From a virus, in IMG/VR virus record IMGVR_UViG_3300045988_163731: a DNA stretch of 63,234 nt. One strand, given 5' to 3'. The notes under the pieces are model-generated. The model made no database searches. It was not told where the DNA came from and saw only the letters and a program-made list of their open reading frames with translations. How positions within the stretch are numbered: position 1 is the stretch's first letter; each line of letters starts with the position of its first letter. The position numbers and the translations under genes were made by a program. This document shows positions 3,806-49,296 of this stretch, one piece after another.

Positions 3806-3937
3806 TAATATGCACTGGCAATCGGGTGAATTGCTGGAAAATCTAAGTTTACATTTTTGCTCAAATAGCTATATTGATGTATAATTAGCAATGTATAGTT
3901 AACAGAAATATCGATATACTGAGGGGGCAAATGTAAT

Positions 3938-24520: not shown

Positions 24521-26464
24521 TTGATGGCAGTAACATTATCTTCTACAGCAAATGGCACATTGAGTAGTGACCTGCTCATAAGCGGTACGCTGAAAATAAC
24601 AGGAGCATTAAATGATGGCACAGAGTCATTAGCGGTATCATTGTATAATGACAATACAGGAGCCACATTTACAGCCTCTGCCCACACCTACAGCAACAGC
24701 CAGACAGTGACTTATTCTTATGCCAATGGCTCCACCATGTCTATTAACCTCAATACTGGCGCATGGGTGTATCAGAGAATTAATAGCGAGGTTGGCAATG
24801 ATAAATACAAATATGTATTTACATTTACCTGGACAGATGGTAACGGCACGCAGACTAATGTGTTGAATGTTGAAACCAAAGAAAACATCACGATTAATGA
24901 ATTTTCTGCCAATGCCCTAGACGACCTCGATGAAACCATTACCGGTAAATGTGATGTGGATATTATTAAGCCAGCAGGGCTAAAGGCAGCCGTTGAAGTT
25001 ACCGCAAACAGTACTAATATGAGCGGTGAGGAAAAGGAAATCACAACTGCTACAGATGTGCTTACCTGGACTTTGCTAGATGATACTGTTTTCACGCTGG
25101 ACTTAGGTAACAAGAAGTTTACCTGCACCAGAAAGGCCGATAACATTGGCGATATGAAGTCTGATGTTTATAGCATAAAAGTATCAATAGGCACTGTAAA
25201 TGCACAGCTAGGCATTATCTCTAATGTGGGATTTCCACCAGATATACAGGACTTCTCTACAGGGAAAGTGTCTGATACGGATACCACCATAAAAGGAACT
25301 TTCAATGCTACCAACATGGATAATTCTGCTGCTAGAGTAACAGTAATTCATAATGGCTATTTGCAGTCAGCAGAAAACAAAGACTATGCTGACACAATGG
25401 AGTGGACCTACAAAGACGGCACCAAGTTTACCTTGAACCCAAAGGATAAGACGTGGACTTACGATAGAGCACAGGCTGACACAACAGACCTACAGCCGGA
25501 TATTTATGTTTTTGAAATTGACATATCCAGCAGATACGGCAAGGATACTGCCACGCTGAATGTTACCACAGACATACCTAAAGCAGAAATTGTTTCTTTC
25601 GTAGCAGAGAATATTGGCGATGATGAGAACCTTATCAACGGAACATTGGAATATACCATGCCTTCCATAGTTCATAACCCAACTATCCGCATTGATGTGA
25701 CAGTTAATGGTATTGCTTATGTTACTACACCATTGCCGATAACTGACCAGGCATTATCCTTTGAATATAGCAATGGTGCAAAGCTGGTAGTCAATCCTGC
25801 TAGCCACACATTCACATACACAAGGGATAGTAATGAGGTAGGCAACAATGAGCCTGACAGCTATGCGTTTGAATTGTCTATAGCGGTAAATGGGCAGACT
25901 ACTACCCAGACTGCTACATCAAAGAGTATGGCTGGCCAAAGAGTTTATGACTATGAGCCTGCCTATCCTGTCAATGTAGCACCTGGCAGTGTTGAACGGC
26001 AAAATACAGCATGGCCAAAGTATGTCATGGAAATTCAGCGAATCTACAGACAGTTCAACGAGAACTTGAACTATTACGAAGCTCTAGCGAACGAGCTAAA
26101 GAAGCAGGTTGCAGAGCTGAAAACCTATGTAGATAATAGGTTCACTGATTATGATAAGACTTTGGATGCTGCGGTAAAGAAACTATCCGCTATCCGTGTT
26201 AAAGCTATTACCGGTGTCGCATATCATGGCGACACAATCCCAGTCCCAGATGGCTCAAAACGTGAGAATTGCGTGTGTCTTGTCAGCTTAAAAGAATGGT
26301 CAAATACACACTCTGACAATAAATATACTTACGATATGTATATTTGGGTAGACCCAAACGGAGTGCTTACTTGTTATACTAAAACTTCTGGCCGTAATGG
26401 CTCAGGAGGTACTTACCCAGGCTGGGCAAATTATCTCGTTATAGATGTTACAACATTAATTTGA
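24521..26464 (+). CDS. Putative tail fibre / host-recognition protein with four tandem beta-sandwich-like repeats of about 110 aa and a C-terminal coiled-coil
   Basis: Repeats end in TVTYSYANGSTMSINLNTGAWVYQR, TDVLTWTLLDDTVFTLDLGNKKFTCTR, TMEWTYKDGTKFTLNPKDKTWTYDR and ALSFEYSNGAKLVVNPASHTFTYTR. Each repeat carries a PD.Y.F block. Confidence 0.5.
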   Translation: MMAVTLSSTANGTLSSDLLISGTLKITGALNDGTESLAVSLYNDNTGATFTASAHTYSNSQTVTYSYANGSTMSINLNTGAWVYQRINSEVGNDKYKYVFTFTWTDGNGTQTNVLNVETKENITINEFSANALDDLDETITGKCDVDIIKPAGLKAAVEVTANSTNMSGEEKEITTATDVLTWTLLDDTVFTLDLGNKKFTCTRKADNIGDMKSDVYSIKVSIGTVNAQLGIISNVGFPPDIQDFSTGKVSDTDTTIKGTFNATNMDNSAARVTVIHNGYLQSAENKDYADTMEWTYKDGTKFTLNPKDKTWTYDRAQADTTDLQPDIYVFEIDISSRYGKDTATLNVTTDIPKAEIVSFVAENIGDDENLINGTLEYTMPSIVHNPTIRIDVTVNGIAYVTTPLPITDQALSFEYSNGAKLVVNPASHTFTYTRDSNEVGNNEPDSYAFELSIAVNGQTTTQTATSKSMAGQRVYDYEPAYPVNVAPGSVERQNTAWPKYVMEIQRIYRQFNENLNYYEALANELKKQVAELKTYVDNRFTDYDKTLDAAVKKLSAIRVKAITGVAYHGDTIPVPDGSKRENCVCLVSLKEWSNTHSDNKYTYDMYIWVDPNGVLTCYTKTSGRNGSGGTYPGWANYLVIDVTTLI

Positions 26465-26475
26465 GGGCACTTCAT

Positions 26476-26889
26476 ATGAGCAAAACATTAGAAGAATACA
26501 TACAAATGTATGAAAAACACACAGGTGAGAAGTTTCAGTTTAACACTGGCTTCTCATTTTTTTATGAGCCAGAACATGGCTTGTGCGAATACAAAATTGA
26601 GGATACAGGCCTTTACTTTTGGCAGATGTGTGGTGACTTAAAGTATTGGGTTGACATTGGTTATAAGGTGTGCCAGCAGTTTGAATTATCATCAATGTCT
26701 GCCTATATCCTGCGGAAGCCTAAACCTTTCATCAGGGCATTGGGATTCAAAATAGAGAGTGAGGAGTGCAAGGATAGGTACAGGCGGTATCACTGCATAA
26801 ATAAAGCAGGCGAGAAGCTGACCGCTACCCAATATGGGAAGAAGTATATTTTTGTTTGGCAGATTCGAGGTGACCAAAACAATGAATGA
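26476..26889 (+). CDS. Hypothetical protein
   Basis: ORF in the late operon. Confidence 0.4.
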   Translation: MSKTLEEYIQMYEKHTGEKFQFNTGFSFFYEPEHGLCEYKIEDTGLYFWQMCGDLKYWVDIGYKVCQQFELSSMSAYILRKPKPFIRALGFKIESEECKDRYRRYHCINKAGEKLTATQYGKKYIFVWQIRGDQNNE

Positions 26890-27577
26890 TTTTAAATTCG
26901 ACCTCCAACTATTCGGCGGAGGAGGTGGTGGCAAAGGCGGTGGAGGAGGTTCTTCTTCTTCATCTTCTTATACGCCTAGTGCACAAGAATTGCAGATAAT
27001 GGAGTACATGAAAGATAATGCCACTAATGCTCAAACTGGCATTACTTCTATGCTTAATCAGTTTAACACAGGAGTAAAAAGCGATGCTTTCAACAATCTG
27101 CTGGGCCAATCAAGTGGCATGATTCAAAGTGGACAGAACACTTATGGTGACTTGCTAAATGGCAAATTACCAACGGCTTACACAGAGAACATGGCTGACG
27201 CTATAAAGTCAGGAGTCAACAGTACAGTAGGTTCTAATATTACCAGTCTTGCTAATCGAGGGGTGCTGAACAGCTCTGTAACTAACAAGGCACTTAATGA
27301 TGTAGAGGGCAATGTAGCAAATGCAATGGCTCAAAACTACAACCAGAATGTCAGCCAGCTTGGCAACTTGGCAGGTCAGCAGATTCAGGCTGCTACAGCA
27401 GGTTATCAGCCATACAGTACCTTGGCTCAATTGGCACAGGGACAGGCTAATACCTTTATTAACAGCCCTGTTAGTGCTTTGCGTGGCAGTGGTACGACTA
27501 AATCTAGTCAGAATAGCGACCCAGGCTTAATGGGTACGATTGGTATGGGCATGAAGATTGCCTCTTTGTTTGCATGA
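26882..27577 (+). CDS. Low-complexity (G/S/N/Q-rich) putative internal virion protein
   Basis: RBS GAGGTGA before the ATG at 26882. Sequence MNDFKFDLQLFGGGGGG. Confidence 0.45.
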   Translation: MNDFKFDLQLFGGGGGGKGGGGGSSSSSSYTPSAQELQIMEYMKDNATNAQTGITSMLNQFNTGVKSDAFNNLLGQSSGMIQSGQNTYGDLLNGKLPTAYTENMADAIKSGVNSTVGSNITSLANRGVLNSSVTNKALNDVEGNVANAMAQNYNQNVSQLGNLAGQQIQAATAGYQPYSTLAQLAQGQANTFINSPVSALRGSGTTKSSQNSDPGLMGTIGMGMKIASLFA

Positions 27578-27593
27578 TAGGAGTGATATAAAT

Positions 27594-28463
27594 ATGAATG
27601 GTTGGGACATGTTCTATGATGGCGCAACTTCATTAGGCGGTAGAATTGCTGAAAATAAAAGAGAGGGTGAGCTTACCGCTGCGTTGCGCAAATTATTTGG
27701 TATGGATAAAAACAGTGGTAACGCCGCTGGCAACAATACGGCAACTAATGATAGTAATGGCAAGATAGACTACGACAATGCTATTGTTAATGGCTTCAAT
27801 CAGTTTACTGCTAATTCCGACAGTCCTTTTACACGGATGATGAGAGCAAATAGTGATGGTACTATTTACAATGTCGACCCAAATTCAGGGACAAAGCTAC
27901 AGGCAACACAGGCTTCTCCATACAATGCTAGTGCAGATTATGGTGTAGACCTTAACAATCCGTATTCTATGGCTATCATGAACGCCAAGAATGATTATGC
28001 TAGAGCACAGAAGCTAGGCGATGAAGCTGCCATGCTCCGTGCTAATGCTGCGGCTGAACAGGCAAGACAGCAGGCACAGGCAGCAGGACTACCACTCCAA
28101 TCTTTCTTGGCAACTAACAATGCCGATTATAACCAAGCAATTGCTATGCAAGATCAGCTAAGAGCAGCACAGGTGGCAGGTAATCAGGGGTTCAGCTATC
28201 AGGATTTGGCAAATGGCAAACTGCTGAATCCGCAAATGACCAATCCAACACAAGGAGTAGTCGAGCAGGCACCTACCAATGCAGGGACAGCACCGGCTAC
28301 CGCTGCCAAGGGTGTTATGACTCCAACAGTGGGCAACCAGCAGACTGTTCAGACACCAACAGCACCTAACACCTACGACATTCAGGCGGGGTGGAACTTG
28401 ATAAAGAACAGACAGAATGGCGGTAGTGCAAATCCTTTTCAGCTGGGGGTCAGGGGGTTTTAA
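27594..28463 (+). CDS. N/Q/A-rich putative internal virion protein
   Basis: RBS TAGGAGTGA before the ATG at 27594. Confidence 0.45.
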   Translation: MNGWDMFYDGATSLGGRIAENKREGELTAALRKLFGMDKNSGNAAGNNTATNDSNGKIDYDNAIVNGFNQFTANSDSPFTRMMRANSDGTIYNVDPNSGTKLQATQASPYNASADYGVDLNNPYSMAIMNAKNDYARAQKLGDEAAMLRANAAAEQARQQAQAAGLPLQSFLATNNADYNQAIAMQDQLRAAQVAGNQGFSYQDLANGKLLNPQMTNPTQGVVEQAPTNAGTAPATAAKGVMTPTVGNQQTVQTPTAPNTYDIQAGWNLIKNRQNGGSANPFQLGVRGF

Positions 28464-28498
28464 ACCCTCTCGACCCCAACTATAAGGCAAAGCTCATT

Positions 28499-29311
28499 TT
28501 GTCATTAAAGGATAAAGGCTTCTCTTATGCTGCCATAGACAAGGCATTGCAATTGTCTGGAGTAGACAGTCAGATTGCTTCTGCCCAAAAGGCTCAATAT
28601 CAGAATATATTCCTTAACGCCATGAGGCAGGGCGATTGGGGTAGCGCTGGCATGGCACTTGCTAATCTGGCAGGGATAGACAAGGCGGGTGCTTCAATGC
28701 TGGGAGCTTACTATCCGTCCTATAAGGATAACTGGGTAGAGGGCAATAAGCGTCAGGACGCTAAAACTAACTTCGGCTATCAGCAACGAATGGCAAAACA
28801 GAAGCATATCTATGGGCAGGAAGATATGCGAACGAAAGCTCAACTGCAAACTATGGCGAATGCTAAAATATTGCAGGATAAAGCCGCTATTGAACAAAAT
28901 GCCAAGCTGGCTTATGCAAAACAGTTGATTAGCATGGGTGTTCCACAGGAACAGGTAATGGCTATGTTGACTGGTGGGGCTAGAAAAACATCAACATCAT
29001 CGTCTGGCGGTAGAGCTAACAAAAATGAGACATATATTGACAATAGTGGCATGGTTCATTATGACAAAGACACTGATAAAGAAATGAGCACCATGCAGGA
29101 CGAGATTAATGGGCTCCAGTACGATATTAAACAGATACAGGGACCTGACGACCCACTCAGAGCAAGCACTGGTGATAAGCACGCAGAATTGCTAAAGAAG
29201 CTGGAGCTTCTACGTCCAAAAATAACAGATGATGATTATCGGACTATGTATGAAACTCTTTATGCACTAAATCAGCAAAGAGACTTAAATTCCGGCTTTA
29301 ATGCAAAATAA
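28499..29311 (+). CDS. Hypothetical virion protein (TTG start, uncertain)
   Basis: ORF directly upstream of the giant gene. Confidence 0.4.
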   Translation: MSLKDKGFSYAAIDKALQLSGVDSQIASAQKAQYQNIFLNAMRQGDWGSAGMALANLAGIDKAGASMLGAYYPSYKDNWVEGNKRQDAKTNFGYQQRMAKQKHIYGQEDMRTKAQLQTMANAKILQDKAAIEQNAKLAYAKQLISMGVPQEQVMAMLTGGARKTSTSSSGGRANKNETYIDNSGMVHYDKDTDKEMSTMQDEINGLQYDIKQIQGPDDPLRASTGDKHAELLKKLELLRPKITDDDYRTMYETLYALNQQRDLNSGFNAK

Positions 29312-29323
29312 GGAGGAAAGTTT

Positions 29324-32300
29324 ATGGCATACTCTAAATATGGTTTATCATTCAAAAATTTTACAGATAGTTATGGTGAATGGGAAGCTAATGGCGGTGT
29401 AGAACAGGCCAACAAAGCCATAGATTTTAAGAATCTACAAAACAATAGCTTTAATGTGCGTGGTTTACCAGGAGGCACTTTTGGCCAATCAGTAATAGAT
29501 AGTGCTCTTGGAGCAGCAGGCAATATTGATGATTTTCTTGGTGGGCCAACAGGACTTGGAGATTATGCCAATAACTATGTCACTGCACAGGAAATGGCTA
29601 TGGGCGAAAAGCCTGAAGCTGATTTCTCTTGGGACTATCTTATAAATGGCCTACCTCGTGATACCGGTAATCTGATAGGCTCTGGAATTGGTTTGGCTGC
29701 ACCTATCGCAGCTGCAACATTGGCAGCACCATTTGTTGGCGTTGGTGCTACTGCTGCTGGTATAGGTGGTGCACTTGCTGGAGCTGGACTGGAGTCTATG
29801 GCTGAGGGTGGTCAAAAAATGCGTGATTCCTTAGCCAATGGTGACTCTCTGGAAACAGCGCAGGATAAAGCAAGGACTGTAGCAGGCGAAAATATGGCGT
29901 TGCTTGCGCCTACAAACATTTTAGGACTGGGAGCGTTAAAGAAAGTAGGGCAGGGATTAAAGACTGCATATAATGGCGGTAAAGCCGTCTCTGCTACTGG
30001 TGGTGCATTAGCAAACTATCCTAAGTTATCACAGGCAGTTGACTTTGCAAAAGGTGCTGGCTGGGCAGGCCTTGGAGCGATGAACGAAGGTGCACAGGAA
30101 GCATGGCAGCAGGGTATTCAAGACAGCGTTGAGCCTGATACTGATTGGGGCATTTTGCCTTGGAATTGGAACGACGAACAGACAGAGGCTTTTGAATCCA
30201 CTATTGGGCCTACAGCTCTTATGGCTGGTGCTGGCGGTGGTGCTAGATTGGCAGCCCGAAAGCTGGGAATGTCTGATGTGCCACAGGTTGATACAGCTCC
30301 ACAGGTTAACAACAACCTCTTCGGTGCTGGCACTGCTGAAATTTCCACACAGGGAGCTGATATTGACGAGCAGGTAGCACACTTGAAAGACGGGTATCAG
30401 TCTGTTATTCCACAGGTTGCAGGTGTGCTGGTTAATGACTTTGGCATTGAGGGTGCTCAAATCTCTAGTGGTTTTAGAACCCGTGAACACAACAGGGAAG
30501 TAGGCGGTGTAGAGAACTCCAACCATGTTGGCGATGGTGAACATGGCGACGCTTTGGACATTGTTCTGCCTGATGGTGTTTCTGCTGAAACAGCAGAAGC
30601 AATCAAACAGAGATTTGAGAACAGTGGTGTATTTGACGAGGTATTGTTCCATGACGCTGGCAGTGGCTACCACCTGCATTTAGGCGGACTGAAAACAGAT
30701 AACATCGGCAACAGCTATGGCTCTTACTCCGGTGATGCTGATGTGGATTCTGCTATCAATGAAATGGCTGAGAAGTACAATCTTGACCCTGCACTATTGG
30801 CAGCAATAGCAGAGCAGGAAAGCGGATTCAATCAGTCTGCACAGTCAGGGGCAGGCGCAATGGGCATTATGCAGTTAATGCCTGACACTGCCGAGGGGCT
30901 AGGAGTGGACCCTAGCGACCTCCGAGGCAACTTAGAGGGTGGAGCAAAATATCTCCGTCAGATGTTGGATAAGTACGATGGTGATGTAGAAAAGGCCCTT
31001 GCTGCTTACAATGCTGGCCCTGGTAGTCTTGATAGCGTAAATGGGGATATTTCCCAGCTGTCAGGTGAAACACAGAAGTATATTCCCTCTGTCATGGAGC
31101 GGTATAATAAGTTCAAAAACAAATCAGGCGGTGGCATTAGCAGTAGTGGCAATATCCTTGATTGGGACTCTACCAATGAGGACTTTTCCAAGCTGGACTT
31201 CTTCCCTAAAGATGGTGAGCAGTCACAGGGGACAGTCAATGAGTTCCTTGAAAACCTTGCCAAGCTGGAGGAAAGTGACGATAAGGCCACCAAGGAAAAG
31301 GGCAGACAGGCACAGGATATTCTACAGCAGTATGGTGATGATACTGAAAAGCTGACAGAAAAGGCTAAGGAATTAGGCTATCAGCAGATAGTAGACCCAG
31401 CAGAGGTACATGGCCGTATTCCTATGAGGCGCATTGTGTCTACAGCTCTGGACAAGGGGCAGGTAACATTTGCCACCAAAAAGGCTGCTGATATTTTCGC
31501 TTCTTCTCCTATCGGCCAGACTATGGAACGGCAGGGGAAAACATTTAAGGTTACTGACAATTTCAAGATGAATGAGCAGGTCAACGCTATTAGTCAGCAG
31601 GTTTATTCTGACAATACAGCTAGGACCAAAACTGTCAAAAATGGTGTTATGGCGGATGCTGCGGCTGCAAATAGAGAACTAAATGGGCAGGCAAGACCTC
31701 CTATCCAGCAAAACGATTCTGTGCTTACTGATGAGGATAGGGGTAGACTCATCAGTGTTATGCCTAATCTGCCACCACAGGTACAACAGCAAATACAGGA
31801 AGCTCTTGCTGAGAACGACATAAAGTCTGTACGCCAGTTGCTTGATGAAGCGACTAATAGCACACCTCTAAACGCTGAAACAGATATTGAAAAAGCAAAA
31901 GCTATAACGAGAGCCTTACTGCAAAATCCAGAAGCAACAACCAGCTGGGACGGCAACGGGGCTGTTAGAACTGCTGCTATAGAGGGATTTATCAACAGCA
32001 ATAATTTAGATGGACTGAATCGTGCTAACAAATACATGGCTCAAAACCTGCGTGACAAAGGCATCAACCCGCTGGAGGTATTGAATCAGAATATAGAAAA
32101 GCCAAACACTTTACCAGCTGTGCAGGGGGAGCGTATGCCATCTACCGATGTACAGCGTGAAGAACCTGCCATTGAGGGAACAGTGGAAGATACTGTCATT
32201 ACTCCTCCGTATAATGGCAATGAGGTAAAAGTTAATAAAGGCGAGCATAACTACTATAAGTGGTTAAGACAAAATGGCTTTGCCCAGCAGGATAGGGCAC

Positions 32301-35300
32301 CAGAAGGCGCACCACAGCTAGCAGAAAACAAAGAATCCACTGGCACGAATAGTGAAAATCAGACCAATTCCCCAACAAGCAAAAATACTGAAATAGAACT
32401 TGCAGATGGATATTCAACTGAATCTGGCAAACCTCTTAATGAAGCAAATGAGCGAGAGTTCATTGTGAAACCTGATGGGAGCAAGGATTTTGGTGAGATT
32501 TCAAGCGATATTTCAGAAGCTACTCATGGTGCGTTAAAATCAGCTCCTATACGGCTACAAGTAGGCAATGAAGTTTTTGGGTATATTCATCTGCTTAAAC
32601 ATGCTAGCCAAATGAAACAAAAAGGATATGATGTGATGGGTTACATCAATCATATCCTAAATAATTTCAATCAAATATACAGCCAGCAAAGTGATAAAAA
32701 GCCAAACCGTTTTGTATTATATTGCAAAGATGATTCAAAAGGCTTTATGCCTATAGACTTGGAATTTGAAAAAGGAAGCGATGATTACTATACGATAGTA
32801 TCTGCAATGCCACATAGAGCAAAAATAAAAGGAACATTGCTCTATGATGGGAGTGCAAATCCATCTATCGCTACCACCGGCGATACCCTTCTTGCAGAGG
32901 CTGACAATAAAGGTGGAGTCAGCAACACTGCGAACACGCATGGGAAGAACAATGTTCCTTCTTCTACCTCTACTATACCACAGAATCAGGATAAGGGCAA
33001 TGAAAATCCTAATGCTTCTAATGAGCCAATGCGTAAGGAACTTATAGAGCAGGCTGCTGCCAATGAAGATACCTGGGTAAATAGCAAGAAAAGCGAGCTT
33101 CACCTTGAAGATGATAACGATACTGTTGTCAAACTCACTCCACAGGAACTGAAATATTATCAAGACTTGATAAAAAAAGGTGTGGTAGCAAAGCCTGAAC
33201 TGTACGAGGAAGCCCAAGAAGATGTTGGCGAAATGGACGACAATGTGGAGATGTCTAAAGAGCAAAAGCAACTCTATGACGAAAGTAGCGACGATAGGGA
33301 TATGCCAAGTGTTGAAGATGAGGCAGAACCTACAGCTGATGAACCACGCACTAAATATAGTAGGGAGAAAAGTCCTGTTGACAAAAAAAAGCCTACTCAC
33401 CATAATGTAGAGTGTAGGGATGTAAAGGAACAAGCGAAACGTTATGTCCAGAGCAGACTTGATAACGGTGCATTAAAAACACTCAAACCGACTGATGATG
33501 TAAATACTGCTATTGAAAAGATTATTGCTCCTATAAAAAGGGAAGTTGATAATCAAGCTGCTAGGTATTTAGAAACTGGCCATGAGCCAGAATATTATCA
33601 GGCTCGTTTAAATATGATTAATTATTACAAGCAACTTGTTGATGAAATAAGGAGGGATTTCAATGCAGGTGATAGACAGTCTGATGTCTACGGACGAGTT
33701 ATTAACGATACTTGGTTCAAACAATCCGCAGGAGAGGGAAGCAACCTCCGAAAAAGTGTTCAAAAGAGAAATGCAGAGATTGAAACACGAGAAGATGAAA
33801 ACTCAGGAGTAAATTCATCCTCTGCAAAAACGGGCAAGACATATGAGAATTATAACCCTAAAACACAAAAGGTATTAGATATGATGTATAAGCACTCTTC
33901 ACGTGATAAGAGTGCTTTTTCTATTGAGCCTATAAATCCACATTCTGCCGAAGCTCAAAAGGAGAACGGCAACAGCAACACTGAACTTGATAGGTTGCCA
34001 AAGGTGCCTATTGCCAAGCTCCGCCAGAGCGAGCAAAGGATTGTCAGATTTGGTAAAGCTATTGGTGTGCCTGTCCATTTTGTTGAGTCAAACGAAACGA
34101 CTAATCGTGGTGTATTCACCCACAATGGTGAAATCTTCATTAACCGCAAGGCAACGGTTCCAGCTCATTCTATCTTTGTACATGAGTTTGTGCATTGGCT
34201 AAAGGCCAGCCCTGAAAATGCTGGTGCATATGATGTGCTTCATGCGTGCTTGGAGAACTCTAGCGGGCTTTTCAATGAGGCACGAATCAATAAGTATCGG
34301 AATAAAATTTTCGATGGCAATAAGATGACTGACGAGGAAATAGTGGAGGAGATTATCTGCGACGCTATGACACAAACCGAGTCAGCCGAAAAGTTAATGC
34401 GTGCTGTTAATAATGTTGATGGTAGCCTTGTCACTAGGATTGCTGGCTGTCTAAAGGCTATGTGGGATAAGTTCTGCGAGTACATGAATTTCAAGCAGCA
34501 TAAAATGAGCAATGAACAGCAGCTGCCAAATGAGTTATCAGTAGCAGAGTTCCAGAGAGCTGATACAGCTTTCAACAAAATTCTGATGAATCTGAAAAAC
34601 GATAATGGCGAGCCTGTATTCCATCGGGTAGGCACAGAGCTTTTGCTGCGTGACAACAACGCAAAGCCTGCAGATACATACCAGCTAAACCCTATCAGCT
34701 ATACTTATGCAGTTGCATACTCCAAGGAAAATAAGGACAATAAGCCTATTGATGAAAAGGCAAAAAACATTCAAAATGAGTATGAGGAGTTATCCGATGA
34801 AGATAAAAAAATCATTGATGACAAAGTGCAAAAACGGCTAGCTGTATTTCAGAATACAGTAGCTGAGAAGATAAGGCAGTCATTCTTAGAACGCTTTACT
34901 GACAGTGATAAGAATTTATCGATTCAGGAATTAAAGAACGATAGTAGAGAACGTGAATGTTTACGAGTATTGTATGAACAATCAAGTAGATATAGTGGCA
35001 AGGTAAGTAATTATAAGGAAGCCCTCCATACATTAGTACCGTGGTATGATACCAATGGGAAAAGTAGGGACCAATTAGTAGAGGATTATAATAGGTTTAA
35101 ACGGCTAGCAGAGGAGATGTTGAATTATGGAACATACACCTTTACCGAACTCTGTAGACAATTTTGCGGACGCGGCAGAGATAATGTTATTAAAAATTCT
35201 GGAAGAAATGTCGAATCAGACCGCGACCTCGAACGCAGAACAAAAGCAACCAAAGGCTTAAGGCAACTGTTCTTAGAGCAGGAGCTAAATAATCTAAAAC

Positions 35301-38300
35301 GTGACAAGCACTCTGAACAGGGTGCTTTTTCTAATGGCAACAAATATTCCCGTGGTGTTGACCTTAGCCCATCGACTGATGGTGTGGCTATTGCTGCCAG
35401 AGCCAACAATAATCTTGTGGCCAACATGAAAGGCATTGTCAAAAAGGCAAATGCCAAGTTTAATCCATTCCACCATGAGGAGCTGGAAAACCTGCGTATT
35501 GATAAGCGTGACGAGAAGAAAGACCTTAACCTTATTGAGTATCAGTTTGTTTCCCCGACCAGGGAGAGCAAGAAGTACAAAGTTATCCAGCCGTTTGTTA
35601 TGAAAGGCAAGCAGGCTATGGCCAAGCAGGAAAAGCTAAGGTTCGAGTTCAATGAGGGCATGAACGAACTTGATAGGCTGCTAGGCTGGCGAGAGGGATT
35701 CCATCGGAATGACCCTAAGTTCAAAGAGCGAAAGGAAGCCCTGAACGAAATACTGTTAAAGGGCGACCTAGAGAGAAAGAATTTCACCAATAAAGAATTA
35801 ATTGAGGCTGGCTATGACGCTGAAACCATCAAGGGCTACCGCAAAATGAGAGCACTCCTGGATAAGGCTTGGAAACTTGCCAATGACATCAAGTCAAGAA
35901 TCAAGTATCAGAGCATAACCAGCTCCACCCTGCGCCGTGCCGAGGCTGATTTTGCAGACTTAAAGGATAAGAACCCATTTGCTGAAATCATCAGCAAGGT
36001 ACACAATCCTGATGGAACTGTGACCATTAACTACAAGGCACCTCATGTAAGGCGTGTGGCAAAGCAGACTGTGCTGCCATCCGAGCTGGAAAACCTCCGC
36101 AAGAACAAAGATGTTCACATTGTGGAAACCACCCAGAGCCTAAAGGGGACTACACAGGTAACTTACTATCAGCGTGAAGCAGGCATGGGCAAATTAGAGG
36201 GATATATCCCTCATATCTTCCACGGCTGGTATGTCTGCAAGGTAGACAAGGACGGCAAGGCCATTGTAGACAAGGACGGCAATGTAGCTATGGATAATAT
36301 CATGACTACAGCCAATTCCCTGTCAGAAGCAGCCAAGCTAGGGCGTGAGCTTGCCAAGGAAAACCCTAACGCTAACTATCGTGTTGTTCCACAGACGTTC
36401 AGCGCACCTGGGGCACAAGAACAGGCTATTGTCATGGGTGACTTTGACTATGCCAAGATAGTAGGCAAAGTGGCTGACTCTATGTCCATGAGTATAACTG
36501 ACGCTCAGGCAATGCTTGATAACACTGTCAAGATGAAAAATCGTGGCAGGTTCTATGGCTATGCTAAACAGCGTAAGGGCTTCAAGGGATTCGAGCAGAA
36601 TGTTTACCTTGCCACTATGAAGTATTTCAACCAGACTGCACGCTATGCAGCTATGGACTCTTTCAAGAGGGATTCCATTAGTATGTATAACCGCATTTTT
36701 GGAGCCTTTGACGATGAGAATGTAACAAAGAGAAGTGCTATGGCCAAGTGGACCAAGCAGTATATCAGTGATATGAATGGTACTCCAACTTGGATTGAGA
36801 AGATGATAAATAACACCTTGCACAATTTCGGGTTGGGCGAGGAGAGAGCAGGGGGCAGACCTGCCTTGTGGTTACAGCAAAAAATCTTCACATATCCTAT
36901 GACCATTCTAAAGCTGGGTGTATTTAACCCGTCCTCTGCCCTGCTGAACCTCACACAGCTCTTTAACCTTTATGGAGCTATGGGAGAAAAGGTACTTAGC
37001 CCACAGGCCTACCAGCGACTCCTACACAAAGGATTTGCTGATACATTCAGGGCAATGAACAATAAGGATAGTGAGCTGGGCAAGTTGCTATGGAAAGACC
37101 TTGGCCTTGATTACCAGATTGGCATGGATATAGCCTCTGGTTATTCCAATGCAGAGGTCAACAACCTTGCTTCCCTGCGAGGTTTTGCAGGTCGTTTGGC
37201 TGGCAAGTCTATGTATTTGTTCAGACAGACCGATGCCTTTGCCAGAGGTGTTACCTTACTGACAGCCTATAACAAGGCGTTAGACGAGGGTAAGAGCAAA
37301 GCAGAGGCCATTGAGTATGCCAAGGAGATAAACGACAAGGTAAACTTTGATGGCTCTGTTGCCGACGAGCCTACCATATTCAGAGCACTTGGCCCAATAT
37401 CCAAGGTTTTCTTGCAGTTCAAAAAATACCCTGTTAAGCAGTTAGAATTGTTCCAGGACTTCTACCTTGATGGCAGGGAACTTGGACTCAACCGCAAGCA
37501 GTCATGGATGCGAATGGCGAAATACATGGCACCATATATGGCAATGTCAGGCATGATGGGTATTCCGTTTGTCAGCCTAGCTAACGGATTGTTCTCCTAC
37601 CTTACAGGTATTTTTATCGGTGATGATGATTGGGATTGGGAGAAGAAAATTAAACAGTTCATGATTACGGAGTTTGGCGAGGACTGTCCTTTGACTCAGT
37701 GGTGGTTGTATGGTGCAGGTTCTTTCATTGGGCTAAACCTTGGCAGCCGTGTAGGTGTTGGCGATTTCTTAGGCTCCGACTCTTACAACTCCGCTGACGG
37801 ATTGGCTGGCCTTGCGTGGAATCAGACCACTCTTGGCTCCACTGTTAATCAGGTGCTAAAGCAGATGTCTTACCGCAATTATGCGGAAGCTCTAAAGGCT
37901 GTTAATCCTACTATGGGTAACATCGTACAGGCATACAAGGGCGAGGTTAGAACCACTAGAGGCCGTATGAAGTATCAGTATCAGAATATGGCTGAAAGAA
38001 TGTGGCGGGCCATTGGCTTTACTCCACTCAATGAAACTTTGGCTGGCGACCTTGCAAGCAATGAGTATGCTGAAAAGCAGGAGCAGACCAAGGCAAAGCA
38101 GGAAGCTGTAGATGATTTCTTAGCAAATCCAAGCAGTGAAAATGCTGACAGACTGAATGAGCTGGGTGTTACTCCAAAATCCTTGGAGAATGAATCAGCC
38201 AGACGGACAATGAACCGCCATCAGCTGAATGAGTTAGCTAAGGAAAAGGAAGCAGCAAAGAAAAAGAAGAAACCAAAGACATACTCTGCCAGCGATTACT

Positions 38301-38317
38301 TAAAAGCTGTGCAATAA
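29324..38317 (+). CDS. Giant (2997 aa) multidomain virion-associated protein. Carries a Gly-rich hydrophobic N-terminus, a Peptidase_M15-like domain, an SLT lytic-transglycosylase domain, and a central HExxH zincin-like motif.
   Basis: RBS AAGGAGGAAAG before the ATG. The M15 motifs are SGFRTREHN...HVGDGEHGDALDIV. The SLT motif is AIAEQESGFNQSAQSGAGAMGIMQLMPDTA. The zincin motif is IFVHEFVHWL. The ORF is unbroken. Confidence 0.8.
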   Translation: MAYSKYGLSFKNFTDSYGEWEANGGVEQANKAIDFKNLQNNSFNVRGLPGGTFGQSVIDSALGAAGNIDDFLGGPTGLGDYANNYVTAQEMAMGEKPEADFSWDYLINGLPRDTGNLIGSGIGLAAPIAAATLAAPFVGVGATAAGIGGALAGAGLESMAEGGQKMRDSLANGDSLETAQDKARTVAGENMALLAPTNILGLGALKKVGQGLKTAYNGGKAVSATGGALANYPKLSQAVDFAKGAGWAGLGAMNEGAQEAWQQGIQDSVEPDTDWGILPWNWNDEQTEAFESTIGPTALMAGAGGGARLAARKLGMSDVPQVDTAPQVNNNLFGAGTAEISTQGADIDEQVAHLKDGYQSVIPQVAGVLVNDFGIEGAQISSGFRTREHNREVGGVENSNHVGDGEHGDALDIVLPDGVSAETAEAIKQRFENSGVFDEVLFHDAGSGYHLHLGGLKTDNIGNSYGSYSGDADVDSAINEMAEKYNLDPALLAAIAEQESGFNQSAQSGAGAMGIMQLMPDTAEGLGVDPSDLRGNLEGGAKYLRQMLDKYDGDVEKALAAYNAGPGSLDSVNGDISQLSGETQKYIPSVMERYNKFKNKSGGGISSSGNILDWDSTNEDFSKLDFFPKDGEQSQGTVNEFLENLAKLEESDDKATKEKGRQAQDILQQYGDDTEKLTEKAKELGYQQIVDPAEVHGRIPMRRIVSTALDKGQVTFATKKAADIFASSPIGQTMERQGKTFKVTDNFKMNEQVNAISQQVYSDNTARTKTVKNGVMADAAAANRELNGQARPPIQQNDSVLTDEDRGRLISVMPNLPPQVQQQIQEALAENDIKSVRQLLDEATNSTPLNAETDIEKAKAITRALLQNPEATTSWDGNGAVRTAAIEGFINSNNLDGLNRANKYMAQNLRDKGINPLEVLNQNIEKPNTLPAVQGERMPSTDVQREEPAIEGTVEDTVITPPYNGNEVKVNKGEHNYYKWLRQNGFAQQDRAPEGAPQLAENKESTGTNSENQTNSPTSKNTEIELADGYSTESGKPLNEANEREFIVKPDGSKDFGEISSDISEATHGALKSAPIRLQVGNEVFGYIHLLKHASQMKQKGYDVMGYINHILNNFNQIYSQQSDKKPNRFVLYCKDDSKGFMPIDLEFEKGSDDYYTIVSAMPHRAKIKGTLLYDGSANPSIATTGDTLLAEADNKGGVSNTANTHGKNNVPSSTSTIPQNQDKGNENPNASNEPMRKELIEQAAANEDTWVNSKKSELHLEDDNDTVVKLTPQELKYYQDLIKKGVVAKPELYEEAQEDVGEMDDNVEMSKEQKQLYDESSDDRDMPSVEDEAEPTADEPRTKYSREKSPVDKKKPTHHNVECRDVKEQAKRYVQSRLDNGALKTLKPTDDVNTAIEKIIAPIKREVDNQAARYLETGHEPEYYQARLNMINYYKQLVDEIRRDFNAGDRQSDVYGRVINDTWFKQSAGEGSNLRKSVQKRNAEIETREDENSGVNSSSAKTGKTYENYNPKTQKVLDMMYKHSSRDKSAFSIEPINPHSAEAQKENGNSNTELDRLPKVPIAKLRQSEQRIVRFGKAIGVPVHFVESNETTNRGVFTHNGEIFINRKATVPAHSIFVHEFVHWLKASPENAGAYDVLHACLENSSGLFNEARINKYRNKIFDGNKMTDEEIVEEIICDAMTQTESAEKLMRAVNNVDGSLVTRIAGCLKAMWDKFCEYMNFKQHKMSNEQQLPNELSVAEFQRADTAFNKILMNLKNDNGEPVFHRVGTELLLRDNNAKPADTYQLNPISYTYAVAYSKENKDNKPIDEKAKNIQNEYEELSDEDKKIIDDKVQKRLAVFQNTVAEKIRQSFLERFTDSDKNLSIQELKNDSRERECLRVLYEQSSRYSGKVSNYKEALHTLVPWYDTNGKSRDQLVEDYNRFKRLAEEMLNYGTYTFTELCRQFCGRGRDNVIKNSGRNVESDRDLERRTKATKGLRQLFLEQELNNLKRDKHSEQGAFSNGNKYSRGVDLSPSTDGVAIAARANNNLVANMKGIVKKANAKFNPFHHEELENLRIDKRDEKKDLNLIEYQFVSPTRESKKYKVIQPFVMKGKQAMAKQEKLRFEFNEGMNELDRLLGWREGFHRNDPKFKERKEALNEILLKGDLERKNFTNKELIEAGYDAETIKGYRKMRALLDKAWKLANDIKSRIKYQSITSSTLRRAEADFADLKDKNPFAEIISKVHNPDGTVTINYKAPHVRRVAKQTVLPSELENLRKNKDVHIVETTQSLKGTTQVTYYQREAGMGKLEGYIPHIFHGWYVCKVDKDGKAIVDKDGNVAMDNIMTTANSLSEAAKLGRELAKENPNANYRVVPQTFSAPGAQEQAIVMGDFDYAKIVGKVADSMSMSITDAQAMLDNTVKMKNRGRFYGYAKQRKGFKGFEQNVYLATMKYFNQTARYAAMDSFKRDSISMYNRIFGAFDDENVTKRSAMAKWTKQYISDMNGTPTWIEKMINNTLHNFGLGEERAGGRPALWLQQKIFTYPMTILKLGVFNPSSALLNLTQLFNLYGAMGEKVLSPQAYQRLLHKGFADTFRAMNNKDSELGKLLWKDLGLDYQIGMDIASGYSNAEVNNLASLRGFAGRLAGKSMYLFRQTDAFARGVTLLTAYNKALDEGKSKAEAIEYAKEINDKVNFDGSVADEPTIFRALGPISKVFLQFKKYPVKQLELFQDFYLDGRELGLNRKQSWMRMAKYMAPYMAMSGMMGIPFVSLANGLFSYLTGIFIGDDDWDWEKKIKQFMITEFGEDCPLTQWWLYGAGSFIGLNLGSRVGVGDFLGSDSYNSADGLAGLAWNQTTLGSTVNQVLKQMSYRNYAEALKAVNPTMGNIVQAYKGEVRTTRGRMKYQYQNMAERMWRAIGFTPLNETLAGDLASNEYAEKQEQTKAKQEAVDDFLANPSSENADRLNELGVTPKSLENESARRTMNRHQLNELAKEKEAAKKKKKPKTYSASDYLKAVQ

Positions 38318-38319
38318 AA

Positions 38320-38356
38320 AAGAGGGCTAGGAGAAATCCTAGCCCTTTATTTTTAT
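38320..38356. terminator. Strong bidirectional terminator at the end of the late operon
   Basis: AGGGCTAGGA-GAAA-TCCTAGCCCT, with TTATTTTTAT after it and AAAAA before it. Confidence 0.65.
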
Positions 38357-38724
38357 GAAATTTTTACTTTTCTATTTAGTTCCATGTAGCAGAACTTCCA
38401 TTGGCTGCCATCTTGCAGAGGGAATCTTAACTCACTGACCGCATTTACGACCACGGTATGTATGATGGGATAGAGCTGCAAAGTCATTTTGCTAACAGAT
38501 AGCAGTTTGATGATTTGATTGTTTTTACAATTCAGCATACCAGGAGAATTAAGAAGTTCTTTAAACATATTCATAGTGAACAAAAATGATAGTGGCAATA
38601 CACACATTCCTAGAAAAAAACTAGATGTTATGTTTTGCGTTCGCTGGTAGGCCTTTAAAAAACCAGCTATGTAGATTGCTACAACAATCAGCAAAGCAAG
38701 ATACACGCAAACTTCTTTCAACAT
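38353..38724 (-). CDS. Membrane protein (about 3 TM spans), unknown function
   Basis: Minus-strand RBS AAAAGGAGGGGTTGAG-ATG supports the start at 38724. Overlaps the upstream gene by 4 nt. Confidence 0.5.
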   Translation of the reverse strand: MLKEVCVYLALLIVVAIYIAGFLKAYQRTQNITSSFFLGMCVLPLSFLFTMNMFKELLNSPGMLNCKNNQIIKLLSVSKMTLQLYPIIHTVVVNAVSELRFPLQDGSQWKFCYMELNRKVKIS

Positions 38725-38725
38725 C

Positions 38726-39223
38726 TCAACCCCTCCTTTTAAAATCATTCATGCCACAATCTGGCAACATCCAATCTACCACACTTAACAACACGGCACT
38801 TCCTAGCCATCGCCATATGTTCTGTATGGGAATATCTTTCAATGAAAAACCTATGAACGCTTCTGATGTACTTATTGTCATTGTAGAAACATTTATTTGT
38901 AATATGCCAAACAAACCCATTACAGCAAAGATACACCACAGACCAGAAACTACTAACTCAGTATAGCGTATCTTCTGTCTTATCGGTGTGAGTGGAGTTA
39001 ATTTTAGGCAGTCTATAAACAGAGGAAAGACAAACAGAAAAATTCCCACAAACAATCCGTCCCCAACATTTAAGGCAAGCACTAGCCAGCTCAATGTAGT
39101 GAGAACTACCCTCAACCCTAAATGTGCTATCAGGTTGGGCTGGTCATGCGCTGTTAATGGATTCCGCCTATACTTGCAGCCATCATAAAATTCACAATAC
39201 CTATCTATTTCACTCAACCACAT
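38726..39223 (-). CDS. Polytopic membrane protein, unknown function
   Basis: Hydrophobic spans throughout. Translationally coupled to the 38353-38724 gene. Confidence 0.5.
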   Translation of the reverse strand: MWLSEIDRYCEFYDGCKYRRNPLTAHDQPNLIAHLGLRVVLTTLSWLVLALNVGDGLFVGIFLFVFPLFIDCLKLTPLTPIRQKIRYTELVVSGLWCIFAVMGLFGILQINVSTMTISTSEAFIGFSLKDIPIQNIWRWLGSAVLLSVVDWMLPDCGMNDFKRRG

Positions 39224-41055: not shown

Positions 41056-41367
41056 TTATTGTCCAAACATTTTCTTTGACATTAATTCAAACTGCTGGAG
41101 AATAGGCTTCCATTGCTCCATGTGGGAATCTATCAGGCCTTTCATGAATTGGTTTACGGATACATTGTTAATCTTTGCCAGCTGCTTTATGGCTTCGATT
41201 TGTTCCTCTGGGACAATAAGGTGAAGATGTTTTAACTCTACATCTGGGTTGTCAGGTTTCCTGCCTCTTTTCTTTGGCTCCTCCAGCTTGGGTTTTGTGA
41301 TTATATCCTTGGCAGCCTCTTTGTAAACATCAAAAGGGCTAGCAACTTTACTAAAATCTTTCGCCAT
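41056..41367 (-). CDS. ParG-like RHH partition/centromere-binding protein
   Basis: C-terminal RHH HLIVPEEQIEAIKQLAKINNVSVNQFMKGLI. Start codon overlaps the parA stop. RBS GGAGGTAG. Confidence 0.65.
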   Translation of the reverse strand: MAKDFSKVASPFDVYKEAAKDIITKPKLEEPKKRGRKPDNPDVELKHLHLIVPEEQIEAIKQLAKINNVSVNQFMKGLIDSHMEQWKPILQQFELMSKKMFGQ

Positions 41368-42167
41368 TATTCTACCTCCGTTTCAGGCTCTTGATAGTTG
41401 AAGATTTCTTGTATCAAACTCAGGTAGTCTTTAGCAGCATTGCTGTTTTTATCGTAAGAGAAAATATCCTTAACACTGGCTTGGGCTTCCTTAATGGCTA
41501 CATTTTCTCTGATACCTGTTTCAAAAACTTTTGTTTTCATTTTCGTGGCAGCACTCTTAAAGAGTTTGTTCATATCCTGTGCAATGCGGGTGCGCTCATT
41601 GTAGCGTGTCATTATTATGCCCGCTATCCTCAACCTGGAGTTGCAGTATTCCCTGACTGACTCAACGGTAGCATACAGCTGACTCACACCTTGCAGACTC
41701 AGAATGTCGGCCTGTGCAGGAATGATTACCCTGTCTGCTGCGGTCAGCGCATTTGCTGTCAGAGTCCCCAGGGCAGGTGGGGTGTCTATTATGATGAAGT
41801 CATACTCCTTGGCTTTACTGCTACCTTTAATGGCCTCCTGTAGCTTATATGACCTGCTTATAGGGTCTGTCAGTCTGCCATCAATGGAAGCAAGAAACAT
41901 GGAGGCAGGAACAATGTCATACTTCTCTAACTGCTGGATTCCCTCAAACAGCCTTGCCTCACCAACAAGGCACTCCAATATGGTAACGACATCAGCATTC
42001 TGAGTGTCAGTTACAGCGCCACATACTTGTGATAGATTACTCTGTGGGTCCAGGTCTAAAAGAAGAACCCTCTTTCCGTAATAGTCCCAAAGCCCAGCGG
42101 CCAGATTTTGAGCGGTGGTGGATTTTCCTACTCCTCCCTTTTGGTTAGCGATGGCGAAAACCTGCAT
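41367..42167 (-). CDS. parA: ParA/Soj-type partition ATPase
   Basis: Deviant Walker A NQKGGVGKSTT, plus LLLDLDPQ. Confidence 0.9.
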   Translation of the reverse strand: MQVFAIANQKGGVGKSTTAQNLAAGLWDYYGKRVLLLDLDPQSNLSQVCGAVTDTQNADVVTILECLVGEARLFEGIQQLEKYDIVPASMFLASIDGRLTDPISRSYKLQEAIKGSSKAKEYDFIIIDTPPALGTLTANALTAADRVIIPAQADILSLQGVSQLYATVESVREYCNSRLRIAGIIMTRYNERTRIAQDMNKLFKSAATKMKTKVFETGIRENVAIKEAQASVKDIFSYDKNSNAAKDYLSLIQEIFNYQEPETEVE

Positions 42168-42689: not shown

Positions 42690-43230
42690 CATTTTGGTTG
42701 TTTGGCGGCGGTTCAGATTATTGTTAGTTTTCTTGACCGTTTGCGACAAGTGGAGAGCGACCACTATAAAAAGGCAGTCTAATCCAGCTCATGCAGAGAA
42801 TGGATTCGTCTTAACGCGATTGTCTTATGTTTGTGTTGCGTTACGGCGTCAGCAGGTAAAGAGTACCAAGCCTGTGTTAAGCCTAAGTCTTGGTATCAGG
42901 ATAAGCTGTTAGCAATAGCAGCGTGGCAAAAGGGAACGGGGGTATCGTCAGGGCCAGCACCATACTAACCAAGGCTGGGGAGGTACATCAGATAAGCGAA
43001 AGCCAAGCAGTCAGACGCTCGATAACGACTGTAGAACGATGTATGATAAGTCACAAACAGAAACACGGATACTCAAACGACGGGGCATTTTATATACTCT
43101 AGTTCCATGTTTAGGCAGACTTTCTTACGCTTGTCGTAGGAGTAGTCTGTCCAAAAGCCGTTGCTCTCACTCCGAAGCATTTTATATACTCTACAACTCC
43201 GAAGTCAACTCTATTCGTTAAAGTTTTTTT
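42690..43230 (+). ncRNA. Candidate structured non-coding RNA region (function unknown)
   Basis: About 540 bp with GC visibly above the neighbouring sequence. Internal 17-bp direct repeat GCATTTTATATACTCTA (about 43084 and 43173). Several hairpins. Only short R-rich ORFs that look spurious. Confidence 0.25.
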
Positions 43231-48542: not shown

Positions 48543-48596
48543 CCTTGTCGTCGCCCCCTTCGTGGGGCGACATAATCGCCATTTTTAGGAGGTAAA

Positions 48597-49037: not shown

Positions 49038-49058
49038 TTCTATAGGGTATCAGCTAAT

Positions 49059-49158
49059 AGCGGTGGCTTCGGCGTCTAGGTTCTGCAACGTCAGCGAAAA
49101 TGGCAATGCGAACTACAACGATGCTTCTAATTCGAACTCCTCTGGCGGCTGTCGCCCG
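49059..49158 (+). repeat. DGR template repeat (TR)
   Basis: Intergenic copy of the VR. Its AAC codons read as Asn in the VR frame. Confidence 0.85.
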
Positions 49159-49296
49159 CTTCTCATATCAGTCTACTCATAGACACATAACAGGGAATGA
49201 GCGGATATCCTTCCTTTAAAAGGTAAATAACAGTTGTGTGCAGTCCGTCTAAGGGCGCTGATTGCATATGCACAGCTATCCCCTAGGGGTTGATTA

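Follow-up and report, generated by a model that had tools for sequence, protein, structure and literature searches.

We analyzed a 63,234-nucleotide stretch of viral DNA (IMG/VR record IMGVR_UViG_3300045988_163731, called here the window, at its full length), in which a single plus-strand gene of 9 kb (29324-38317) encodes a 2997-amino-acid (aa) protein that we read as a probable ejection protein of the phage. The original prediction, made from the DNA letters alone, had described one unbroken reading frame at the end of the late operon, and this was borne out. The gene runs from ATG to stop in one frame of 2997 codons, a consensus Shine-Dalgarno sequence (AAGGAGG) lies 7 nt 5′ of the ATG, and right after the stop codon there is a hairpin with a 12-bp stem and a T-run that is terminator-like on both strands. 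As this terminator follows the stop codon and the next two genes lie on the minus strand, convergent with the giant gene, the latter is the last of the late operon, whose rightward order begins with the large terminase (14182), the portal (16728) and the major capsid protein (20200). The frame is also unbroken in more than 120 relatives of 2316-4096 aa, encoded on contigs of ~60-66 kb, and is therefore no chance open reading frame (ORF); one of the related proteins is identical, and those of the relatives' contigs that were looked up come from human gut metagenomes.

The first 350 aa form a domain that is present in 64 of 98 distant giant relatives, N-terminal every time. It contains the glycine-rich hydrophobic stretch that had been noted before, with the hydropathy maximum at aa 117-156 (LIGSGIGLAAPIAAATLAAPFVGVGATAAGIGGALAGAGL) and 36% Gly plus Ala over aa 101-200, and the surrounding segment (aa ~110-160) is a putative membrane-interacting part. 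Two predicted cell-wall hydrolases follow, both as originally proposed. Peptidase_M15_3 (PF08291) matches aa 378-429 with an E-value of 2e-8 and 34.7 bits against a gathering cut-off of 23.2, a match that spans profile positions 43-90 of 108 only, and motifs of the Zn-ligand type are recognizable by eye: H..GDALD at aa 399-412 (pattern H..GxAxD) and HLH at aa 450-452 (HxH). The SLT lytic transglycosylase family (PF01464) matches aa 477-572 far more strongly (E 5e-27, 94.2 bits, cut-off 21.3), and the domain has the catalytic Glu-Ser pair in AEQES at aa 496-500 as well as the GxMQ and AYNxG motifs; T7 gp16 is among its relatives in the PDB. When eight separate segments were compared with Pfam and PHROGs at loose thresholds, only M15, SLT and the C-terminal PHROGs described below were returned, so that M15 and SLT would be the only activities assignable in the giant protein at the Pfam level.

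The last thousand residues (aa 2000-2997) are a module whose predicted layout is a helical part, an alpha/beta domain (aa ~2194-2404) and a large helical domain (aa ~2427-2979) with a hydrophobic helix at aa 2747-2765. Residues ~2630-2985 match the C-terminal ends of five PHROGs with profiles of 2434-4647 positions, the top one being "DarB-like antirestriction" (phrog_10089, E 1e-16). Among phages, tblastn with the module found the giant genes of POI1126 (gp30, 4841 aa), Sinorhizobium PBC5, Agrobacterium Atu_ph08, Serratia Parlo, the Rhizobium RHph_TM phages and a Vibrio phage; with aa 2450-2997, the match to PBC5 orf23/p23 had an E-value of 1e-8 in a 2.3-Gb database. With a four-sequence profile of aa 2000-2997, HMMER was run exhaustively over 1.84 billion cluster representatives and found 2073 with E ≤ 1e-3, of which 252 have E ≤ 1e-30; most are 2000-5855 aa long. 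In 71/71 tabulated matches the module ended no more than 38 aa from the C-terminus of the protein. Eleven distant giants, 19-31% identical to the first member of their alignment, were scanned with Pfam, and each of them has a muralytic domain, which is SLT in six, Transglycosylas in three and Glucosaminidase in two. Their other cargo includes ResIII, SNF2, Helicase_C, ddrB-ParB, LPD23, LPD3, ART-PolyVal, DNA methylases and a Zeta toxin.

The module was modeled by AF2 at a pLDDT of 71.7, and comparison of the model with predicted viral structures (BFVD) gave 80 matches at E ≤ 1e-3. Matches over ~1000 columns are the terminal chunks of giants named chromatin-remodelling ATPase, DNA methylase, large polyvalent protein-associated domain or PolyVal ART, while podovirus proteins of ~1400-1500 aa matched over the whole module, namely those of Vibrio ICP2, Celeribacter P12053L and Salinivibrio CW02 and the "internal virion protein D" of Roseobacter CRP-4/CRP-5. 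Aligned by hhalign, 136 module sequences and six T7-type gp16 bodies share 636 collinear columns (E 9.4e-4 in a one-to-one comparison). The segment of top confidence pairs the near-invariant SVADEP.IFR..GPISKVFLQFKKYPVKQLE of the module with KVADE.AMLR..GALGKMVMQFKSFTIKSLN of T7, and elsewhere in the alignment GYIPHIFHGW pairs with GTYVPHVYD. We consider this direct link between the module and T7 gp16 weak, standing on top of strong published support. In the extended T7 IVP-D family (IVP-D standing for internal virion protein D) of Hardies et al. 2016, merged sets were joined with a profile-profile (HMM-HMM) E-value of 8e-19, and these sets comprise the phiRIO-1 gp37 set (CW02, ICP2, SIO1, P12053L), the F116 group, epsilon15 gp17, the C-terminal domain of N4 gp50, and T7 gp16 (PMC4819975). 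The F116 group includes the very large H66 gp60, PBC5 p23 (in Table 2 of that paper) and BcepMigl gp69, and H66 gp60 was likened to N4 gp50 as a case of IVP-D homology joined to a domain that necessarily acts in the cell (PMC4819975).

A block map, made by BLAST of the giant protein against its 120 best relatives, separates near-universal blocks at aa 1-965, ~1550-1800 (with an HExxH motif) and 2000-2997, which have mean identities of ~83%, 76% and 88%, from three stretches that are swapped in many of the relatives, called here bays S1 (~965-1212), S2 (~1345-1512) and S3 (~1811-1999). In some pairs the flanks are 94-98% identical and yet the inserts differ, as in relatives P0009, with another S1 cassette, and P0002, with another S3 cassette. 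Clustering of the inserts gave 4, 5 and 7 cassette types for S1, S2 and S3, respectively. In the relatives, Pfam recognizes PBECR1 in bay S1 (P0060 and P0066), ddrB-ParB in bay S2 (P0027 and P0011, the S2 representative) and ART-PolyVal in bay S3 (P0118), and the S3 bay of P0082 contains a second copy of the HExxH module, 22% identical. Two further proteins suggest that GGDEF and HATPase_c-type domains are additional cargo types for the same chassis: P0290 (1603 aa) combines a module 30% identical to that of the giant protein with a GGDEF diguanylate-cyclase Pfam domain, and P0126, a 284-aa fragment, is 93% identical to the HExxH block and has HATPase_c-type Pfam domains (PF02518, PF13589). 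As judged from these comparisons, the conserved chassis is the N-terminal hydrophobic domain, the cell-wall hydrolase, often the HExxH block, and the C-terminal module, and the rest is variable cargo.

The occupant of bay S1 is a domain of ~135 aa (aa 1043-1177), in which G.IH..KH and YY...(S/T)A.P are invariant across variants that are only 38-47% identical, the invariant polar residues being H1089, K1092 and H1093. The domain recurs in 11 distant giants at positions ranging from 934 to 1583 and thus behaves like a functional domain that is shuffled among proteins. Other giants likewise contain the S2 and S3 segments of the giant protein. No match to aa 1043-1177 was found in Pfam, in the PDB (profile search) or among phages (tblastn). 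It is not called a PBECR domain here, as the hhalign comparison with the relatives' PBECR1 cassette was not significant despite similar-looking motifs. The original prediction had also suggested looking for MuF, ArdC or other anti-defence modules in the unannotated segments; Pfam detected no MuF, no ArdC (ArdC-N) and no other anti-defence module in the giant protein.

Between bays S2 and S3 lies the HExxH block, whose motif (aa 1620-1624) and E1644 are invariant, even against the 22%-identical paralogous module. A family-specific profile finds 44 copies of the block in 35 of the 98 distant giants; HExxH is retained in 41 of them, with a median distance of ~1280 aa to the C-terminus. The alignment consensus of the eleven giants scanned with Pfam retains "RGV..NG.I.INR....F.HE..HW". 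POI1126 gp30 and the RHph_TM protein have one HExxH each in the same sequence context, which in POI1126 gp30 reads G.I.(I/L)N ... HE..H and lies about 1065 aa from its C-terminus. A profile search with the block in a database of 5.8 billion proteins gave 11 fragments only and no giants, as the word index seemingly misses domain-sized queries in very long proteins. An AF2 model from a 7-sequence alignment arranges the block as a helix, two strands, a helix with HExxH, and a helix with the Glu; in an MPTase hub domain, HExxH lies on one helix and a downstream Glu on the following one. We regard the block as a candidate zincin-like peptidase of the MPTase type: of the zincin-like HExxH that had been proposed, the motif is real and invariant, together with E1644, and the zincin fold is putative. 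The long helical K/E-rich regions of the original prediction also stood in part. Four stretches have at least 30% Lys plus Glu (aa 1254-1316, 1797-1861, 2045-2105 and 2131-2192), but they are ~60 aa each and not long, and the whole protein has 15% Lys plus Glu. The coordinates of all these features are given in Table 1.

Table 1. Features of the giant gene and its surroundings in the window
Feature	Position	Strand	Basis or remark
Whole gene; probable giant virion/ejection protein of polyvalent type, 2997 aa	29324..38317	+	ORF; full-length relatives
Ribosome-binding site AAGGAGG and spacer before the ATG	29310..29323	+	Read from the sequence
N-terminal chassis domain, aa 1-350	29324..30373	+	Hydropathy, composition; in 64/98 distant giants
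Gly/Ala-rich hydrophobic segment, aa ~110-160	29651-29803	+	Hydropathy, composition
Peptidase M15 (LAS-type) domain; Pfam match aa 378-429, HxH aa 450-452	30455..30688	+	PF08291
SLT lytic transglycosylase domain, aa 477-572	30752..31039	+	PF01464
Region aa 610-964, family-specific conservation	31151..32215	+	~117-120/120 close relatives, 3/98 distant giants
Bay S1, aa ~965-1212	32216..32959	+	Occupant common to 33/120 relatives only
S1 occupant, ~135-aa domain, aa 1043-1177	32450-32854	+	Signature G.IH..KH ... YY.(I/V).(S/T)A.P
Semi-conserved spacer between S1 and S2, aa 1211-1344	32954..33355	+	Roughly 90-108/120 relatives
Bay S2, aa ~1345-1512	33356..33859	+	Five cassette types; ddrB-ParB-containing insert in many relatives
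Conserved HExxH block, aa 1513-1810	33860..34753	+	120/120 close relatives; invariant residues
HExxH motif, H1620-E1621-H1624	34181-34195	+	Sequence
Bay S3, aa ~1811-1999	34754..35320	+	Seven cassette types; ART-PolyVal or second HExxH module in relatives
C-terminal chassis module, aa 2000-2997, IVP-D/gp16-like body	35321..38314	+	HMM, AF2/BFVD, tblastn
Bidirectional intrinsic terminator, end of late operon	38321..38348		Hairpin
Four late genes (142, 247, 301 and 270 aa) directly 5′ of the giant gene	26461-29311	+	
Two small genes for hydrophobic multi-helix proteins	38353..39223	-	Convergent, directly after the giant gene
ParA/CbiA-type partition ATPase gene	41367-42167	-	Pfam

We propose, with a probability of about 0.72, that the product of the giant gene is the large ejection (internal-virion) protein of a short-tailed human-gut phage of ~63-66 kb, built as chassis plus cargo, and that it is the functional counterpart of T7 gp16 (IVP-D) and N4 gp50, in the lineage of the "DarB-like" F116/Bcep22-type virion giants. 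The protein is tied to the IVP-D family through an accepted member, PBC5 p23, and through phrog_10089; as in that family, the muralytic domain is on the N-terminal side and the gene stands at the end of the tail/internal-protein block. Its size of 2997 aa and its place as the last gene of a terminase-portal-capsid operon also fit a polyvalent protein. The major capsid protein is of the SU10 type in the precomputed Pfam listing, and its relatives belong to podoviruses (PaP3/Bruynoghevirus, Ochrobactrum POI1126, Rhizobium RHph_TM and Sulfitobacter phages). The prediction that no tail tube or sheath genes precede the giant gene agrees with the PHROGs and the precomputed Pfam matches of the upstream late genes, which give terminase, portal and SU10-type capsid only and no tube, sheath or tape-measure signal; several of these genes are unannotated, so this holds to the sensitivity of the profiles. 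At the nucleotide level, megablast of the giant gene against 50,697 phage records gave no match.

The word "polyvalent" is supported by the family context, that is, by the domains in the bays of close relatives and by LPD23, LPD3, helicases, methylases and the Zeta toxin in the distant giants. The prediction of a polyvalent-type protein in place of a simple tape measure held up in this sense, as the relatives carry PBECR1, ddrB-ParB and ART-PolyVal at variable sites and the similarity to tape measures is confined to SLT. Polyvalent proteins were defined by Iyer et al. 2017 through domains such as these, and that paper describes the zincin-like MPTase as a hub domain with a proposed role in autoprocessing of the chain, counts lysozyme, DdrB-ParB and PBECR2 with those domains that only phage-type members have, and reports extensive domain mosaicism among orthologues, for example H. 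pylori jhp1044 (PMC5512222). That the protein would be injected is inferred from JC1 gp69, a protein of 4515 aa found in the virion by mass spectrometry (PMC9144972), and from the published placement of PBC5 p23 and BcepMigl gp69 in IVP-D. N4 gp50 is now regarded as the third ejection protein, in the slot of gp16.

Several results weigh against this proposal. The hhalign probability of the alignment between the module and T7 gp16 is 22% only, the module profile found no gp16 among PDB sequences, the solved gp16 structures were not matched, so that structural resemblance to gp16 or other ejection proteins was not found, and hhalign of the module with the C-terminal domain of N4 gp50 was not significant (E 0.16). 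For the HExxH block, no Pfam, PDB (profile) or phage (tblastn, nothing significant) homologue was found, its AF2 model is poor (pLDDT 51), and its hhalign match to the N4-type MPTase region (E 0.004, probability 9%, 32 columns) is at the level of the motif only. None of the giant protein's own cassettes could be named by Pfam, PHROGs, PDB or phage searches, and it has no Pfam-recognizable polyvalent-specific domain; because of this, effector activity is extrapolated from the relatives. Moreover, the envelope of Firmicutes or Negativicutes, the hosts hinted at by the lysis genes and by a binned contig, may differ from the T7/N4 paradigm.

The lack of nameable cassettes bears most directly on the alternative that survives best, in which the giant protein is a structural ejection or internal-core protein and nothing else, its 1400 interior aa being inert spacers or relics and "polyvalent" applying to the relatives only. 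Residues 610-2000 have no Pfam, PHROG, PDB or phage match beyond family-internal conservation, and the comparison of the S1 domain with the PBECR1 cassette gave nothing significant. We consider this alternative unlikely all the same, as H1089, K1092 and H1093 are kept in all variants of the S1 domain, this domain recurs at differing positions in distant giants, as the S2 and S3 segments also recur, and the HExxH residues and E1644 do not vary. Besides, 4 kb of non-functional coding DNA would be unlikely to persist in a 63-kb phage.

The very length of the protein, its Gly-rich hydrophobic segment and its SLT domain could also suggest a tape measure protein with muralytic domains from a long-tailed phage, like SPbeta YomI. 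In the SLT domain, the identity with YomI, annotated as a tape measure protein in some records, is 56%, and the best PDB match of the domain is the tape measure protein 9b45. However, this similarity covers ~130 aa of SLT only, the capsid, portal and terminase fall in with those of podoviruses, and the C-terminal 1000 aa are homologous to the giants of podoviruses verified by electron microscopy (POI1126, PBC5, Parlo and Atu_ph08; PMC5492332). The upstream genes gave no tube, sheath, tail-chaperone or baseplate signal, and we found neither a position between tube or chaperone genes and baseplate genes nor homology over the full length, the defining features of a tape measure gene. As a rule of thumb, a tail measures ~0.15 nm per tape-measure residue, and 2997 aa would mean a tail of ~450 nm. 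We judge this explanation highly improbable.

Equally little speaks for a true DarB-type antirestriction protein, in which a methyltransferase and a helicase would shield the incoming DNA from type I restriction. The name comes up because the top PHROG of the C-terminal module is called "DarB-like antirestriction" and phage homologues are annotated alike, but the part in common is the C-terminal module and not the enzymatic core of DarB, and in the distant relatives helicase and methylase are just one of several kinds of cargo. In the whole protein and in its segments, Pfam found no family of methylases or helicases at E ≤ 1, and without an N6-adenine methyltransferase plus helicase this candidate was rejected. 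Finally, the ParA-like gene, the plasmid-prophage replication of POI1126 (PMC5492332), a phage with a homologous giant gene, and the occurrence of polyvalent proteins on conjugative elements too (PMC5512222) could point to conjugation-like or plasmid delivery by an element living as a plasmid, or to a secreted cell-wall hydrolase, in either case not a virion component, but this is scarcely credible for a gene that ends a terminase-portal-capsid operon, in a window where no type IV secretion system genes were seen in the Pfam listings, when lysozyme and DdrB-ParB belong to the phage-type domains named above and the homologue JC1 gp69 is in the virion (PMC9144972).

For the ejection protein that we prefer, the following course of events seems likely, every step of it inferred. 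A few copies would be packed in the head at assembly, with the C-terminal module probably providing incorporation, like the corresponding region of N4. On adsorption, the giant protein would be expelled through the tail ahead of the DNA, its hydrophobic N-terminal domain would engage the membrane, and M15 and SLT would locally cut the peptide and glycan bonds of the wall. The C-terminal module would then join a conduit in the cytoplasmic membrane for DNA entry, which would place the interior cassettes in the cytoplasm at time zero, where they could act on host nucleic acids or defences, and the HExxH block may cut the chain to release them. A more far-reaching version, which we regard as tentative and rather doubtful, would see the N-terminal domain and the ~1000-aa module as a universal self-packaging, self-ejecting podovirus vehicle with hot-swappable bays that turn over between ~95%-identical gut phages; the occupants (aa 1043-1177, S2 and S3) would be new anti-defence or takeover effectors, and HExxH would represent a new clade of autoprocessing peptidases cutting at the bay boundaries after injection.

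The closest known systems are the F116/Bcep22-type "DarB-like" giants (Bcep22 gp75, JC1 gp69, BcepMigl gp69, POI1126 gp30, PBC5 p23, Parlo and H66 gp60), which share with the giant gene the place of last morphogenesis-operon gene in a ~60-kb podovirus and a homologous C-terminal module, at ~22-28% identity over 200-400 aa of the module only. All Bcep22-like phages have the giant gene, then two minus-strand genes, then lysis genes (PMC9144972), and the window has the same order of giant gene, terminator and two minus-strand genes, which here encode small hydrophobic proteins. The giant protein differs in its smaller size (2997 aa), in its M15 and SLT pair, in having no methyltransferase/helicase cargo, and in belonging to a low-GC gut phage, probably of Firmicutes/Negativicutes and not of proteobacteria. 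With T7 gp16/IVP-D it has in common SLT near the N-terminus, a long and mostly helical C-terminal body, the slot at the end of the internal-protein block, and the conserved motif VADE..R..G..QFK..(V/I)K, although it is 2.3 times longer than gp16 and has in addition ~1400 aa of cassettes, a 360-aa domain at the N-terminus and the M15 peptidase.

The virion RNA polymerase gp50 of N4 (Schitoviridae) is a comparable giant of ~3500 aa, encapsidated and ejected, a virion role that here would be assumed by analogy. [quoted passage not shown] Phage-type polyvalent proteins are likewise huge multi-domain products of late genes with a lysozyme-class domain and an HExxH block, and orthologues with PBECR1, ddrB-ParB, ART-PolyVal and LPD domains and a mosaic turnover like that described for jhp1044 are seen here as well, whereas the available text of Iyer et al. 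2017 does not present the N-terminal domain and the C-terminal module of ~1000 aa as a universal chassis. P1 DarB, the source of the homologues' annotation name, is also a large protein packed in the head and delivered with the DNA; however, its methylase/helicase is absent from the Pfam matches of the giant protein, and P1 is a myovirus whose packaging depends on DarA/Hdf (PMC9144972). Similarity to DarB itself did not come up, though no search was aimed at it. With SPbeta YomI and the SLT tape measures, apart from the SLT domain, nothing is shared, and the virion type is another.

The principle is already published, with IVP-D fused to intracellular domains in 2016, polyvalent proteins in 2017, and the Bcep22-type virion giants in the 2022 paper on JC1 and in older work on Bcep22/BcepIL02 cited there. 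What is gained here is breadth and a clean, abundant gut-phage example, not a new principle, with side results in the wide distribution and strict C-terminal place of the module, a conserved domain at the N-terminus, and three defined bays turning over between ~95%-identical phages. If our model is true, the gene family would be a natural catalogue of proteins injected by phages at time zero, a comparison of gut phages that are near-identical outside their bays would lead to candidates for anti-defence effectors and to the host systems that these oppose, and the principle of gp16 and the N4 virion RNA polymerase, an ejection protein with an intracellular enzyme, would extend to abundant human-gut phages, probably of Firmicutes/Negativicutes. 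The C-terminal module, present in over 2000 cluster representatives, offers a convenient way to find such injected cargo in metagenomes and would correct misleading names derived from cargo, such as "DarB-like", "DNA methylase" and "chromatin-remodelling ATPase".

Around the giant gene, the four late genes directly upstream have no Pfam or PHROG match; by analogy of position they lie in the slot of T7 gp13, gp14 and gp15 and are candidate partner ejection proteins. By tblastn, the late genes and the two minus-strand neighbours showed no similarity to the loci of POI1126 and RHph_TM, the POI1126 stretch compared being one without its capsid and portal genes. Electron microscopy showed POI1126 to be a podovirus; it replicates as a plasmid prophage, and ORF30 is its largest gene (PMC5492332). 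The phage in the window may also be maintained as a phage-plasmid or plasmid prophage, given its ParA gene and its kinship to POI1126, with which it would then share this lifestyle.

Weak hints to the host come from the lysis genes and from one metagenomic bin and point to Firmicutes or Negativicutes. The lysis region has an Amidase_2 endolysin gene with a weak XhlA match beside it. The sole match among GTDB species-representative genomes is a 45.7-kb contig (L008, CAKPYV010000018.1) in a Hadza gut metagenome-assembled genome, "uncultured Anaerovibrio sp.", which is 94% identical over the C-terminal module, a weak hint since it depends solely on binning. Upstream of the lysis cassette, the intergenic stretch 43061-43193 has two 41-nt direct repeats, 92 nt apart and both with the end GCATTTTATATACTCTA, which could serve as repeated elements of a promoter or operator.

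At the right end of the window (~61784-63234), a gene for a MerR/resolvase-type serine recombinase precedes an OrfB_IS605/Cas12f1-like TnpB gene, and Pfam matches on a near-identical contig mark the two as an IS607-type insertion. Further to the left, the window also contains a complete diversity-generating retroelement (47673-50490), with the variable repeat (VR) at 48412-48524, the template repeat (TR) at 49046-49158 and the reverse-transcriptase gene at 49297-50490. The two copies of the 113-nt repeat are 86% identical, and the TR copy is just upstream of the RVT_1 gene. Every core mismatch between the copies has A in TR and C, G or T in VR, at the 3′ end of a 289-aa ORF (47673-48542) that probably encodes a receptor-binding or tail-fibre protein.

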